Positions 23,725-29,114 of a DNA stretch of 29,114 nt are shown here, one piece after another. The notes below the pieces were generated by a model. That model was given only the letters and a program-made list of their open reading frames with translations. It was not told the DNA's origin and did no database searches. A program made the position numbers and the translations under genes. The stretch's first letter is position 1, and every line of letters begins with the position of its first letter. Source of the DNA: Balneolales bacterium (GTDB lineage: Bacteria > Bacteroidota > Rhodothermia > Balneolales > Balneolaceae); contig JAKSCW010000292.1 of the NCBI GenBank assembly GCA_022360375.1, positions 1 to 29,114 on the forward strand, written 5' to 3'.

Positions 23725-25503
23725 ATGAGCAAAAAAGAGGAAACAGAACAAAGGGGAATAAAGAGTTTACGCGAAACTCTGGTCAAAATTTTCGCTCTCA
23801 GTAAGCCATACCGGGTTCGGTTTTTTAGCGCTACTGGATTGGTGCTCATTGCTTCAGCTATTTGGCTGGCGGTACCACTTGGGTTGCGCGAATTGCTGGA
23901 TGCCGTTTTTGAACAAGGGAATGAAGGATTGCTAAATTTACTGGCAATCGGTCTTATGCTCATGTTTATTGTACAAGCCGGGTTCTCGTTTATGGGTAAT
24001 TACTTCCTGGAGTGGGTGGGAGAGCGAGTAATTACAGACCTGCGAAAAAAGGTATATGAGCATCTTCACCGGTTAGGGTTCCGGTTTTTTGCTGAACGCC
24101 GTTTGGGAGAAATTACTTCGCGGTTAACCAACGATGTTAGCTCCATTCGAACGGCGTTAACCGATTCTTTACCTCAATTGCTTACGATCACTTTTTCATT
24201 AATAGGTTCGGTTTCTTTAATGGTGGTGCTGAACTGGCGTCTCAGCTTGGTAATCTTTGCAACGGTGCCATTTGTAACTATTGCAACCCGCTATTTCGGC
24301 CAAAAAATCCGAAAGCTTTCCCGTGGAATTCAGGATGAATTGGCGGATTCAACGGCGGTGGCAGAAGATGCTTTAGGAGCCATTCGTTTAGTAAAGGCGT
24401 TTGTGAGGGAACATTATGAAGTAAGCCGTTATAGTTCTGCTATTGAAAAGCTTTTTATTACTGCGAGGAGGAAAGTAGTACTTACTCAATTGTTTTGGTC
24501 TGGAGTGGGTATTATGTTCTTAAGCACTTTGGTAGTAATTTTCTGGTACGGAGGGAAAGAAGTGCTGGCTGATCGGCTAACAGCAGGTGATTTGGTAGCT
24601 TTCATTATTTATGCACTGAATATTTCGCGCTCTATCGGGCAAACTTCGAGGCTATATACTGCTGTAAATTCAGCGGCAGGCGCCTCTGAAAGGATTTTTG
24701 AAATCCTGGATGAAATCCCTGAAATACAAGATCGGGACGACGCAAGGCAGATTGAAAACATGGAGGGAGCTATCTCGTTCGAAAAACTGACTTTTTCTTA
24801 CGAAGACGACCGGGTTATTCTGAATAATATATCTTTTGAAGCAGCACCCGGGCAAACGATTGCATTGGTTGGGCCCAGTGGTGCCGGGAAAACCACGCTT
24901 CTTAATTTGATTCCAAGATTTTACGATCCCCAAAAAGGGGGTATACTGGTGGATGGGATAGATATAAGGGAGGTACAGGTGAAGAGTTTGCGGGAACACA
25001 TTTCTATTGTTCCGCAGGAAGTTCATTTGTTTGGAAGCAGTATTCGGGAAAACATTTTGTATGGCCGCCTGGATGCAACCGACGAAGAAATCATTCAAGC
25101 TGCGAAGGATGCAAACGCGCATGAATTCATATCGGAAATACCGGAAGGATATGATGCCTTGATTGGAGAAAAAGGGGTGAAACTGAGTGGAGGTCAGCGC
25201 CAAAGGGTAGCCATTGCCCGTGCTATTCTGAAGGATCCTAAAATCCTTCTACTCGATGAAGCTACTTCTTCACTGGATTCAGAATCGGAAGCCCTGGTAC
25301 AGGAAGCACTTGAACGATTGATGCGGGCAAGAACCACTTTTGTAATTGCCCATCGGCTTTCAACGGTTCAACATGCCGACCGAATTCTGGTTATCGATAA
25401 AGGAGAAATTGTGGAAGACGGAACCCACCAGGAACTGCTGGCAAAAGGTGGCTTATACAGCCATTTATATGGATTGCAATTCCGGGACCTGGATACGGTT
25501 TAA
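23725..25503 (+). CDS. MsbA-like ABC exporter (fused TMD-NBD)
   Basis: ABC membrane domain plus Walker A GPSGAGKT, signature LSGGQRQR, Walker B ILLLDE, D-loop SSLD and IAHRLST. Substrate not assignable. Confidence 0.93.
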   Translation: MSKKEETEQRGIKSLRETLVKIFALSKPYRVRFFSATGLVLIASAIWLAVPLGLRELLDAVFEQGNEGLLNLLAIGLMLMFIVQAGFSFMGNYFLEWVGERVITDLRKKVYEHLHRLGFRFFAERRLGEITSRLTNDVSSIRTALTDSLPQLLTITFSLIGSVSLMVVLNWRLSLVIFATVPFVTIATRYFGQKIRKLSRGIQDELADSTAVAEDALGAIRLVKAFVREHYEVSRYSSAIEKLFITARRKVVLTQLFWSGVGIMFLSTLVVIFWYGGKEVLADRLTAGDLVAFIIYALNISRSIGQTSRLYTAVNSAAGASERIFEILDEIPEIQDRDDARQIENMEGAISFEKLTFSYEDDRVILNNISFEAAPGQTIALVGPSGAGKTTLLNLIPRFYDPQKGGILVDGIDIREVQVKSLREHISIVPQEVHLFGSSIRENILYGRLDATDEEIIQAAKDANAHEFISEIPEGYDALIGEKGVKLSGGQRQRVAIARAILKDPKILLLDEATSSLDSESEALVQEALERLMRARTTFVIAHRLSTVQHADRILVIDKGEIVEDGTHQELLAKGGLYSHLYGLQFRDLDTV

Positions 25504-26645
25504 TTGTCTGTTTGGTAAGCTCCTATTACATCGCTGTAACTCATGTCATCCAATAAATTTCTGTTTTCCAGTTCAGTAAGAAATTCTACGGGCACATTAC
25601 TGGTGTACAATCCAATTATACCCGAATAGGAAAAGGTATCCAGGAAACCAGCTTCCTGAAGTTCATTCAAATAAGAAATACTCACATTACTACTATACAA
25701 CCCAATGATAGCCGAATAGCTAAATTCATCGAGGTATCCGGCCGCTTGCATTTCATCCAGGTAGCTGGTGCTCACGTTGCTGTTGTACAGTCCAATAATT
25801 GCTGAATAACTGAATTCATCGAGGTACCCGGCTGCCTGCATGCGGTCTAAGTAGCTGGTTGTTACATTACTGCTATACAACCCGATGATGGCCGAATAGC
25901 TGAATTCGTCCAGGTAACCCGCTGCCTGCATTTCATCGAGGTAACTGGTAGTAACATTACTGTTGTACAATCCAATGATTGCAGAGTAACTGAAATCATC
26001 CAAATACCCGGAGTTCTGCATCCTTTCTAAGTAGGTTAAGGTGACTCCGCCGTTGTACAGGCCAATTACAGCAGAATAGGAGAATTCGTCTAAGAATCCG
26101 GCATTATTTAGTTGTACCAAATAATCAACGGGTAGACCACTGTTATATAATCCAATAATAGCAGAGTACGAGAATTCATCCAGCAAGCCTGCTCCTTCAA
26201 TATCTTTTATGTACTGAATGGGTACGCCACTATTGTAAAAGGCCTGAACGGCTGAACCGGAAAACATATTCAGGTTTTGCTCATTGAATTGTTGCAGATA
26301 ATCCAGGTAGCCACTTTCTATTCCAGAATATTCAACTGTGGGAGGCAAAGGTACTTCAACTACGGGAGGCGAAGGGGTAGCAGGGAGGTTCACATTTGTG
26401 GAAGTTGAAGTTTCCCCAGTACCAAAACTGAATATGGAAAAAGGGCCTCCGGTTGCGACCCAAAGTGAAGCGATAATGAGAAAAATGCCGATGGCAATCA
26501 GGTTTCTTTTTGTAGTTGGTTCTTTCTCTTGTTCGGTGAAGAAAGATTCCTGATCAAGGTTTTCCGGGTTTGATTTCTCCCGAAGATATTCGTCGAGATC
26601 AAAATCAGGATCAGCATTACCTGGCCGGGTTCGTTCTTTTCTCAT
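25500..26645 (-). CDS. Uncharacterised single-pass membrane protein with 8 full 30-aa repeats (paralog A)
   Basis: N-terminal FDLDEYLREK, TM LIAIGIFLIIASLWVA, Pro-rich linker, then units of consensus FSYSAIIGLYNSNVxxSYLDEMQAAGYLDE. Confidence 0.85.
   Translation of the reverse strand: MRKERTRPGNADPDFDLDEYLREKSNPENLDQESFFTEQEKEPTTKRNLIAIGIFLIIASLWVATGGPFSIFSFGTGETSTSTNVNLPATPSPPVVEVPLPPTVEYSGIESGYLDYLQQFNEQNLNMFSGSAVQAFYNSGVPIQYIKDIEGAGLLDEFSYSAIIGLYNSGLPVDYLVQLNNAGFLDEFSYSAVIGLYNGGVTLTYLERMQNSGYLDDFSYSAIIGLYNSNVTTSYLDEMQAAGYLDEFSYSAIIGLYSSNVTTSYLDRMQAAGYLDEFSYSAIIGLYNSNVSTSYLDEMQAAGYLDEFSYSAIIGLYSSNVSISYLNELQEAGFLDTFSYSGIIGLYTSNVPVEFLTELENRNLLDDMSYSDVIGAYQTDN
25503..26264 (-). repeat. Coding tandem repeat, 90-bp/30-aa period, 8 units plus 14-aa partial unit
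   Basis: FSYSAIIG recurs every 30 residues. The central units are about 72-83% identical at DNA level by hand count. Confidence 0.92.
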
Positions 26646-27481
26646 TGGTTATCCCTCATGGTATAGAGTGAAGTAATTTGATCGGTATTCAGATCAGACA
26701 AGAGGCCGGTGTCTCTGAGTCTGCTCAAAAAAGAAATCGGTACATCCGCATTGTACAGCTGCTGAATATCTTCTCCCGAAAAAGTGTTTAGATTTCTTTC
26801 TGAGAATTCTCTTGAATATTCATCAAAGCTTAAACTATTGGGTTCGAAATCCCTTAAATCAATAGCCGCAGAAAAATCTAAATTTTCTAATTGTTCCAGA
26901 GCTTCCAATGCTTCAAGTCCTGATAAACCTTCTAATGCTTCAAAATTTTCGAGGGCTAAAAGAGCTGATTCCAGAGCCAACTCTACAGAAGATTCTGTTA
27001 ACGCTTCCAGCTCCTCAGCAAAATTTTGATTGGAATTAATGGCTAGTCCGGCATCACGAAATGCTTCATCAATTTCCTGAGCAATATTGGCTGCTTCTAA
27101 TTCGCTGTTGATTCTTTCTGCAAGGCCCTGAAGCTGTAATTCTTCATTAATAGTGCGGGCAAGCTCAGCTTCTTCTAAAGCACGTGAAACCTCTTCTGAA
27201 ATTGTGGATTCCAATTCTGAACCACTGGGGCCAATAACGGTTACAGTGGGTTCTTCATTGGCTCCAAAAAAGCTGCCTAAATTTCTCTCATTCAAAAACA
27301 ACAATGCGATCACCAAGGCTCCGGCAAGCACCATGGTACTTCGGATCCATTTGCTGCGTTCTGATTTTTTTGTTTCCGGTTCATTGTAGGGCGAGAATGT
27401 TTCTTCGCCAGATTTTTCCTTTATGTATTGATCTAAATCAAAGTTTGAGTCATGATTATAGGGTCGGTTCTTTGTAGACAT
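26642..27481 (-). CDS. Uncharacterised single-pass membrane protein with acidic helical stalk and one 30-aa repeat (paralog B)
   Basis: N-terminal FDLDQYIKEK, TM MVLAGALVIALLFL, Glu/Ala/Leu-rich stalk, then FSGEDIQQLYNADVPISFLSRLRDTGLLSD plus a partial unit. Confidence 0.82.
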   Translation of the reverse strand: MSTKNRPYNHDSNFDLDQYIKEKSGEETFSPYNEPETKKSERSKWIRSTMVLAGALVIALLFLNERNLGSFFGANEEPTVTVIGPSGSELESTISEEVSRALEEAELARTINEELQLQGLAERINSELEAANIAQEIDEAFRDAGLAINSNQNFAEELEALTESSVELALESALLALENFEALEGLSGLEALEALEQLENLDFSAAIDLRDFEPNSLSFDEYSREFSERNLNTFSGEDIQQLYNADVPISFLSRLRDTGLLSDLNTDQITSLYTMRDNQ

Positions 27482-27484
27482 ACT

Positions 27485-28702
27485 CTAATTATCTCCATCA
27501 ATTTTGTAGGCATTAATCACTGAAGAAGAGCTCATGTTATCAAGCAATCCTAAATCTCTCAATTCTTCTAAATAGCTTACAGGAACTCCATTATTATATA
27601 AGTTCGAGATAGAAGTGCCGCTATATTCGTCAGTAAGTCCCAGGTTTTTCAATGAAGTAAGATATTCGATTGGTACCTGGTTGGAATACATAGCGGCAAC
27701 ACTGGTTCCACTAAATGAATCTATAGCATCGATTTCAGAAAGGGATTGAATATACTCAAGCGGAACTCCAGCCTGGTACATAGTAACAATTGATGTTCCG
27801 CTAAAACCGTCAAGAGCCCCTGAATTTTTTATTCCAAGTAAATATTCTGCCGGTACTTGATTAGTATACAAAATGGATAGGGATGTCCCGCTAAAACTGT
27901 CTGCCATATCGGCATCTTGTAAGTTTTTGAGATACCCTATCGGAACCTGGTTGTTATACAGCTCAACGATTGAAGTACCACTTAATGCATCCATCAGCCC
28001 AATATCTCTAAGGCCTTCCAGATAGCTTAAAGGAATCTGGTTTCCATACAAGGTAGAAATAGATGTTCCACTAAAAGAATCAACCATATCACCATTCCCA
28101 AGTTGGATAATATATTCTGCAGGAACATTGTTCTGATACATAGTAACCAGGGAAGTTCCGCTGAACACATCAATATACCCGGCATCTCCGATTTGCCTTA
28201 AGTATTCTATAGGAATGTTATTCGTATAAAGTGTTTGCTGCGAGGTACTACTGAATAATTCAAGGTAACCTAACTCGTTTAAAGCCGTTAGGTATTCAGT
28301 AAATGTCATATCCAATGGAACGGCATCAGCATCTACCTGGGGTGGAGTTTCTGTGTCAAAATCGAAGTCGAAATCAAAGTCGAAATCATTTTCACCAAAT
28401 TCGAAAGTAAACGGTTCAACAACATTGGTGGAAGGTTCTACAGTAACCAGTTCTGGTTCTGCTTCATCGAAAAAATAGGAGATAATATTGTTTGGGTTCC
28501 AATCGAAGTACCAAAGAAAAGCAGCAAGAAATACGGCTACAATAACTGCGGAATTGCGCAGGAAGTAGGAGTTTCCGGGAACCTGTGATTCTTCTTCTGT
28601 AAACGAATTCGAAGCGTTTTCCCCTTGTGCTTTCTCCCTGATATATTCATCAAGGTTGAAATCATCAGAACCTTTATTTTTTCTTGTTTTTTGCCCGGCC
28701 AT
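27485..28702 (-). CDS. Uncharacterised single-pass membrane protein with (DF)n tract and 8 full 30-aa repeats (paralog C)
   Basis: N-terminal FNLDEYIREK, TM AVIVAVFLAAFLWYF, DFDFDFDFDFD, then units of consensus FSGTSIxxLYxNxVPxEYLxxLxxxGxxDx. Confidence 0.85.
   Translation of the reverse strand: MAGQKTRKNKGSDDFNLDEYIREKAQGENASNSFTEEESQVPGNSYFLRNSAVIVAVFLAAFLWYFDWNPNNIISYFFDEAEPELVTVEPSTNVVEPFTFEFGENDFDFDFDFDFDTETPPQVDADAVPLDMTFTEYLTALNELGYLELFSSTSQQTLYTNNIPIEYLRQIGDAGYIDVFSGTSLVTMYQNNVPAEYIIQLGNGDMVDSFSGTSISTLYGNQIPLSYLEGLRDIGLMDALSGTSIVELYNNQVPIGYLKNLQDADMADSFSGTSLSILYTNQVPAEYLLGIKNSGALDGFSGTSIVTMYQAGVPLEYIQSLSEIDAIDSFSGTSVAAMYSNQVPIEYLTSLKNLGLTDEYSGTSISNLYNNGVPVSYLEELRDLGLLDNMSSSSVINAYKIDGDN
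27488..28255 (-). repeat. Coding tandem repeat, 30-aa period, 8 units plus 16-aa partial unit
   Basis: SGTS (SSTS in the first unit) recurs every 30 residues from residue 150 of the ORF. Confidence 0.9.
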
Positions 28703-28707
28703 ATTTT

Positions 28708-29114
28708 TTAATTCTCTTCTTTATAAAGTTCTACAACATCAATAAAGCTCAATTCATCGTATAAGCCAATTTCTTTTAATCGATCCAGAAACTCAGTTGT
28801 TACTCCATTTTCATAGTATTCAGTAATATGCACAAAGGATAGCTCATCTAAGTAACCGGCTTCGTCTAATTGGTCCAGGTATTCCAGGGGAACGCCGTTC
28901 TGGAAAAATTCCCCAATTTCGACAAATGAAAGCCGGTCCAGGTAGCCCGCCTGGTCTAGTGTGGTTAAATAACTGAGCGGAATATTCTCATTATAGAACT
29001 CATCTATTTCAACAAAAGAAAGCCGGCCCAGGTATCCTTCTGTGTTCAATTGAACCAGGTACTCAACGGGAACTCTTGCAATGTATAATTCTCTGGCTTC
29101 AAAAGCAGAAAGGA
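28708..29114 (-). CDS. C-terminal part of a fourth 30-aa repeat protein (paralog D), 5' end outside the window
   Basis: The frame is open from the window edge: LSAFEARELYIARVPVEYLVQLNTEGYLGR, LSFVEIDEFYNENIPLSYLTTLDQAGYLDR, two more units, then LSFIDVVELYKEEN stop. The track start at 29049 is an internal TTG. Confidence 0.85.
   Translation of the reverse strand, partial: LSAFEARELYIARVPVEYLVQLNTEGYLGRLSFVEIDEFYNENIPLSYLTTLDQAGYLDRLSFVEIGEFFQNGVPLEYLDQLDEAGYLDELSFVHITEYYENGVTTEFLDRLKEIGLYDELSFIDVVELYKEEN

Follow-up and report, generated by a model that had tools for sequence, protein, structure and literature searches.

Why do neighbouring membrane proteins keep one short peptide at a fixed place in tails that otherwise vary? 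The question is raised by a four-gene array at the end of a 29,114-nucleotide stretch of DNA from a Balneolales bacterium (assembly GCA_022360375.1, contig JAKSCW010000292.1; the whole stretch is called the window below), which is the whole of contig C423 in a metagenome-assembled genome of 588 contigs (G000). The array encodes paralogs A, B and C and, cut by the contig end, part of paralog D. A preliminary description of the window had placed the motif F[DN]LD[EQ]Y[IL][RK]EK behind a basic leader in A, B and C and had taken it for a cytoplasmic docking helix. Translation returns the three peptides exactly where they had been placed, all on the minus strand: FDLDEYLREK in paralog A (26574-26603, residues 15-24), FDLDQYIKEK in B (27413-27442, residues 14-23) and FNLDEYIREK in C (28631-28660, residues 15-24).

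A conserved peptide in the N-terminal tails

From the genome's own residue frequencies, the strict pattern is expected 6.6e-6 times in the six-frame genome translation of 6.15 million residues. It was observed three times, in paralogs A, B and C only. The codons of the motif vary synonymously among the three genes at nearly every position (TTT/TTC, CTC/TTA/CTT, GAC/GAT, TAT/TAC and CGG/AAG/AGG), which argues that selection acts on the peptide rather than on a nucleic-acid element, and against recent gene conversion.

In the translations, the extended motif covers 14 residues: DPDFDLDEYLREKS in A (residues 12-25, 26571..26612, minus strand; residues 17-25 are helical in the AlphaFold2 model discussed below), DSNFDLDQYIKEKS in B (residues 11-24, 27410..27451, minus strand) and SDDFNLDEYIREKA in C (residues 12-25, 28628..28669, minus strand). 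The consensus of 104 distinct N-termini of the family is [DN]-[PD]-[DN]-F-D-L-D-x-Y-[LI]-[ED]-E-[KQ]-[AS], and its columns carry 2.3-4.3 bits, whereas the flanking tail stays below 1.3 bits, so that the motif is indeed the island of conservation it had been taken for. Among the same N-termini, aspartate is nearly invariant at positions -1, +1 and +3 of the motif, and glutamate stands at +7 and +8; at motif position 8 the family consensus is E, and the R or K of A, B and C is found in a minority only. The form F-[DN]-[LF]-D-x-[YF]-[LI] is found in 50 of 54 family open reading frames from the contigs of the window's genome and from loci of 13 related genomes, and usually starts at residue 13-16 when the first ATG is taken as the start.

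The rest of the tail and the transmembrane (TM) helices had been described as barely alignable. This holds for the sequence of the linker between motif and TM helix, which is not conserved, but not for its length (15-27 residues, median 20), nor for semi-conserved basic residues at -10 and -8 of the motif. Also conserved in the family are R-N at the cytoplasmic end of the TM helix and LWxxDWxP at its outer end.

A motif absent from orthologs of other species would have told against the docking helix of the preliminary description, but orthologs from at least 12 genera keep it. A 32-column N-terminal profile matches 75 of 283 Balneolales genomes, all from Balneolaceae and spread over 12 genera; in an even sample of Bacteroidota it matches 45 of 61 Balneolaceae and, as one borderline case, a single genome among 339 others. 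Each of the matched Balneolales genomes has 1-7 copies of the N-terminal module; the open frames that encode it measure about 250-390 aa, save one of 114 aa. With paralog C as query, a word-indexed search gave only 2 matches, and HMMER, run exhaustively against 1.84 billion representatives, gave only 143 clusters. Every named family member is labelled 'hypothetical protein'. Other architectures carrying the tail were sought by running the N-terminal profile against 5.8 billion proteins; only family members were found among the best 8000 candidates, which is weak evidence. Within the window's genome, a profile scan of all open reading frames likewise limits the motif to this family. One candidate outside it, VDEFDLDEYM on contig C485 (12.5 bits, E 0.11), close to the C-terminal end of a soluble, truncated protein, was judged a chance match. 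No Pfam or NCBIfam model matched A-D above cut-off, and a full-text literature search for the motif strings gave no match.

Topology, fold and relatives

AlphaFold2, run as a monomer on a 56-sequence alignment (mean pLDDT 88), predicts coil up to D16, a helix from L17 to S25 (block pLDDT 73-80), a disordered acidic linker and a TM helix at residues 45-65. These are followed by a low-confidence Pro-rich spacer and a very confident (about 97) solenoid with two 9-residue helices per 30-residue repeat. The hydrophobic segment is not part of a recognizable Sec or Tat signal peptide, since 40-66 hydrophilic residues precede it and no RR consensus is present. Lysine plus arginine in the flanks of the TM helix average 2.5 on the N-terminal side and 0.6 on the C-terminal side. 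This bias, together with homologous repeats at the position of the BlaR1 sensor, points to a cytoplasmic tail and a periplasmic solenoid, and the computed topology thus agrees with the cytoplasmic placement of the motif in the preliminary description.

The BlaR1 likeness lies in the repeats. Residues 128-392 of paralog C align with the C-terminal regions of M56 proteins (phmmer, E 7e-44 to 1e-8), so that the same 30-residue repeats form the C-terminus of BlaR1/M56 proteins and of the window family. Most of the BlaR1/M56 proteins that share them are from other phyla, e.g. P0009 and P0010 from Acidobacteriota, and the long relatives P0009, P0010 and P0050 match PF05569 (Peptidase_M56). In contrast, none of the four paralogs matched PF05569 in a Pfam scan, and no HExxH occurs in the window proteins, the sole cytoplasmic part of which is a tail of 45 residues; the BlaR1/M56 proteins for their part lack the FDLDxYL motif. 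The C-terminal sensor domain of BlaR1 is extracytoplasmic, and repeats shared with such proteins are as would be expected of a sensor or ligand-binding module.

Structure searches added no informative relative. The best Foldseek match of the solenoid in the PDB had an E of 0.09 (generic solenoids of the TAL-effector or mTERF-like kind), matches in the ESM Atlas had TM scores of at most 0.45, and residues 1-70, used as query for a feature search of the ESM Atlas, brought no usable match. The paralogs had been thought to carry different ectodomains. All are solenoids of 30-residue helical repeats, and the difference lies within this common fold: each has its own repeat signature, and B has fewer repeats, behind a stretch rich in E, A and L.

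The window proteins combine the three features of what may be named the FDLDxYL-tail/30-residue solenoid family, namely the N-terminal motif, a single TM helix 15-27 residues further on and helical repeats. By sequence, this is an undescribed, Balneolaceae-specific family of predicted single-pass inner-membrane repeat proteins, with the motif as its defining signature.

What the tail may do

The reading that we prefer, and for which we see about an even chance, is that the motif serves as a short linear docking element, common to all paralogs, for one cytoplasmic or membrane-proximal partner. The parts follow one another in the order leader (basic, about 12 residues), motif, unconserved acidic linker of near-constant length (about 20 residues), TM helix, Pro-rich spacer and periplasmic solenoid, which would keep the docking element at a fixed depth below the membrane. 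Within the motif, F-D would be extended and then followed by an amphipathic helix with L2, Y5, L6, K9 and A10 of the motif on its hydrophobic face; such acidic-hydrophobic peptides typically adopt their fold on a groove of the partner. All paralogs of the operon, and the dispersed copies as well, would engage the same partner, through which the periplasmic solenoids would be linked to a single process inside the cell. Of the docking helix as first described, the predicted helix, its conservation and its place in the cytoplasm have stood; the naming of a specific partner or pathway has found no support.

Several observations weigh against docking. A survey of gene neighbourhoods at 20 loci from 13 genomes linked no gene for a sigma factor, protease adaptor, scaffold or other cytoplasmic protein to the array, so that the kinds of partner suggested in the preliminary description are not borne out, and the search for a partner named none. 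The profile searches found the motif on no other protein family; with this confinement there is no independent sign of a portable docking module. The helix of the motif is predicted with only moderate confidence, and on a monomer. A complex prediction with four copies of the 44-residue tail ended without an answer (score 0.00) and counts neither for nor against binding.

Known systems offer a precedent for the plan. The N-terminal peptide of PilN binds PilM and the N-terminal tail of FtsN binds FtsA; in both, as in the present family, a tail motif on the inside is followed by one TM helix and a periplasmic domain, and in both the tail docks a cytoplasmic protein. There is no sequence similarity to either (PilN has INLLP, and FtsN basic patches plus D5), no gene for an actin-like partner is adjacent, and docking is directly known for PilN and FtsN while it is inferred for the family. 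TonB and TolA are similar in layout, with a short N-terminal cytoplasmic tail, a single TM anchor, a Pro-rich spacer and a C-terminal periplasmic domain. However, neither Pfam nor NCBIfam gave a TonB_C or TolA match for A-D, AlphaFold2 models the ectodomain as a solenoid made of helices throughout, the family has no TM motif of the SHLS type, and TonB tails are not known to carry a conserved acidic motif. The closest residue pattern is that of VP16 (DDFDLDML), an acidic amphipathic peptide that folds to a helix on binding a hydrophobic groove. Its DFDLD, followed by a hydrophobic residue and L, is nearly that of the motif, but VP16 is a viral protein of the eukaryotic nucleus, without evolutionary relation to the family, and the likeness is one of analogy only.

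One further step, which we consider unlikely, would make the FDLDxYLEEK tail a common handle that links periplasmic solenoid sensors (1-7 per genome, each with its own repeat signature) to one cytoplasmic transducer. If true, this would be a new transmembrane signalling route, in which the sensor module of BlaR1/M56 proteins is kept and a 14-residue docking peptide takes the place of the protease. In any case the motif gives experiments a cheap and precise way into an envelope family that is lineage-specific and multi-copy and has neither a Pfam model nor a solved homolog. The 14-residue peptide (as bait, e.g. DPDFDLDEYLEEKS) could be used directly to find the cytoplasmic partner, and the partner would reveal the role of the periplasmic solenoid arrays and, by extension, of the repeats on BlaR1/M56 sensors. 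Should no partner exist, the motif would still be a clean taxonomic and family signature for annotation. Its value is that of a ready-made bait peptide for an envelope system, not of a demonstrated new mechanism.

Among the alternatives to docking on a separate partner, the one that survives best, though with a rather low probability, is that the motif is an assembly element: the tails of co-expressed paralogs would bind each other, homo- or heterotypically, and nucleate an A-B-C-D complex. Translational coupling of four paralogs in a conserved order is as expected for stoichiometric subunits, and the finding of the motif in this family only would also fit. However, many genomes with a single copy keep the motif (genus g8, loci L035 and L036), which leaves only homotypic binding compatible with assembly, and self-association of so strongly acidic a motif would be electrostatically unfavourable unless bridged by the basic leader or by cations.

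It is improbable that the tail is a minimal tether of the anti-sigma kind, which would sequester a sigma factor or repressor and release it on a signal from the periplasmic solenoid. An N-terminus inside, one TM helix and a sensor-like periplasmic domain make up the architecture of anti-sigma proteins, and in other phyla the same solenoid is fused to the signal-transducing proteases of the BlaR1/M56 type. Against this, about 14 residues are conserved in a whole tail of about 45 aa with two short predicted helices, and known anti-sigma domains are far larger. No anti-sigma domain (zf-HC2, RskA, RsgI_N and similar) was matched in Pfam or NCBIfam even at E<=1, and at the surveyed loci no sigma gene is adjacent, nor any regulator gene consistently, a receiver gene being present at L033 alone. 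At no locus but L033 (G016:C16) does a gene for cytoplasmic signalling come immediately after a family gene; there, at 2515-2895, a gene for a CheY-like stand-alone receiver follows the single family gene on the same strand, an arrangement seen in one genus.

We likewise see little prospect for a signal for turnover or processing, with the motif read by a cytoplasmic or membrane protease (FtsH, Clp or a Lon adaptor), or serving as the active portion of a fragment that intramembrane proteolysis would set free. Such a role would suit a membrane protein whose N-terminal tail is exposed and longer than 20 residues, the M56 relatives work by proteolysis, and SPFH/NfeD genes lie nearby in conserved synteny. 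These genes belong to an operon of their own on the far side of the ABC gene described below, however, and nothing ties the motif to a known class of degron.

A site for a divalent cation, in which D-x-D-x-D and the ensuing helix would bind Mg2+ or Ca2+ in the manner of an EF-hand or DxDxDG loop, is very doubtful. It would account for the nearly invariant aspartates and for the two glutamates. With D at -1 counted as loop position 1, however, position 6 is not Gly (it is variable column 4, with E/S/D/Q/A) and position 12 (column 10) is A or S and not acidic, so that the loop is neither of the EF-hand nor of the DxDxDG type; the predicted helix begins inside the would-be loop, and the invariant F, L, Y and L are left unexplained by metal binding.

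Mimicry of the C-terminal peptide of FtsZ, by which the tail would bind FtsA or another receptor of the FtsZ tail, was rejected as scarcely credible: LDEYLREK of paralog A does resemble LDTPSYLRRD and EQPAFLRKIMD of this genome's FtsZ, and shares with that short strand-plus-helix docking peptide the acidic residues followed by an aromatic, L and a basic residue, but the likeness vanishes at the level of the family consensus YLEEK, which has acidic residues in place of the basic ones of FtsZ (position 7: E58/D14/R13 of 104), and the family motif does not show D-[IV]-P-x-[FY]-[LM]-[RK] at the extreme C-terminus, being N-terminal, without Pro and two residues shorter. The FtsZ of this genome (L042, contig C59, 746-2059, minus strand) itself has two such motifs, LDTPSYLRRD internally and EQPAFLRKIMD at the terminus, about 50 residues apart.

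The array, its neighbours and further paralogs

All genes of the array are on the minus strand. Paralog A (25500..26645, 381 aa) consists of the basic leader, the motif, the acidic linker, a TM helix (26445-26504, about residues 48-67), the Pro-rich spacer and nine 30-residue helical repeats. Paralog B (26642..27481, 279 aa) has an A-like tail, a TM helix (27293-27349), an acidic stretch rich in E, A and L (26876-27196, with LEALEALEQLENLD) in place of most of the solenoid, and about two repeats; short paralogs orthologous to B, of 261-290 aa, occupy the same place in the array of related species. Paralog C (27485..28702, 405 aa) has an A-like tail, a TM helix that ends in LWYFDWNP (28505-28552), a (DF)5 tract and repeats at an exact 30-residue period. 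The tract, DFDFDFDFDFD, is a perfect (DF)5D at residues 106-116 (28355-28387, minus strand), in the periplasmic spacer just before the repeats. The C-terminal 134 aa of paralog D are encoded at 28708..29112. The array is translationally coupled, the ATG of A overlapping the TGA of B (ATGA) and the remaining gaps being 3-5 nt, and the order of the four genes is syntenic across the genus.

Downstream of A, a gene for an MsbA-like ABC exporter (23725-25503, plus strand) is convergent with paralog A and overlaps it by 4 bp (25500-25503). This convergent adjacency, at 0-14 bp, is kept in four genera (loci L021-L029, L035 and L036), including loci with one family gene. The exporter was nevertheless rejected as an obligate partner because its presence does not strictly track that of the family. 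Genomes in which the family was not found do have an exporter ortholog (G006, G014, G023 and other families of the order), whereas in the family-bearing G008 none was found. Besides the ABC exporter, the neighbours of the array at the 20 loci include genes for GH3, DUF58, a dehydrogenase and others.

Paralog D has the motif too. Its N-terminus is on contig C315 (509..3, minus strand), with FDLDDYLNEQ at residue 20 and NNDLD upstream; that contig ends in ...NLLSAFE and the D fragment of the window starts with LSAFEARELY. P0168 (296 aa), a near-identical full-length protein that shares a 90% cluster with the C315 fragment, covers both halves. Another paralog is divided between C187 (FDLDEYIEEK) and, probably, C553, and adjoins a DUF58 gene as do its orthologs in other species. 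A copy on C55, cut at the contig end, bears the degenerate motif DDFDWGKYE. Genes of this repeat family thus break the assembly, and the genome has at least 6-7 members rather than four. The 114-aa open frame noted above, with the N-terminal module at G231:C26:49501-49587, is either a minimal version of tail plus anchor or a truncated gene.

The NNDLD of paralog D belongs to a second motif, phi-x-N-D-L-[DE], seen on C315 and in P0006, P0015, P0043 and others, which precedes FDLDxYL in a D-type subfamily. The tail may have two halves, of which this motif would be the older. Subfamilies that lack FDLDxYL show the upstream motif as L-x-N-D-L-[DE]-[WFR]-L-[DE]-P.

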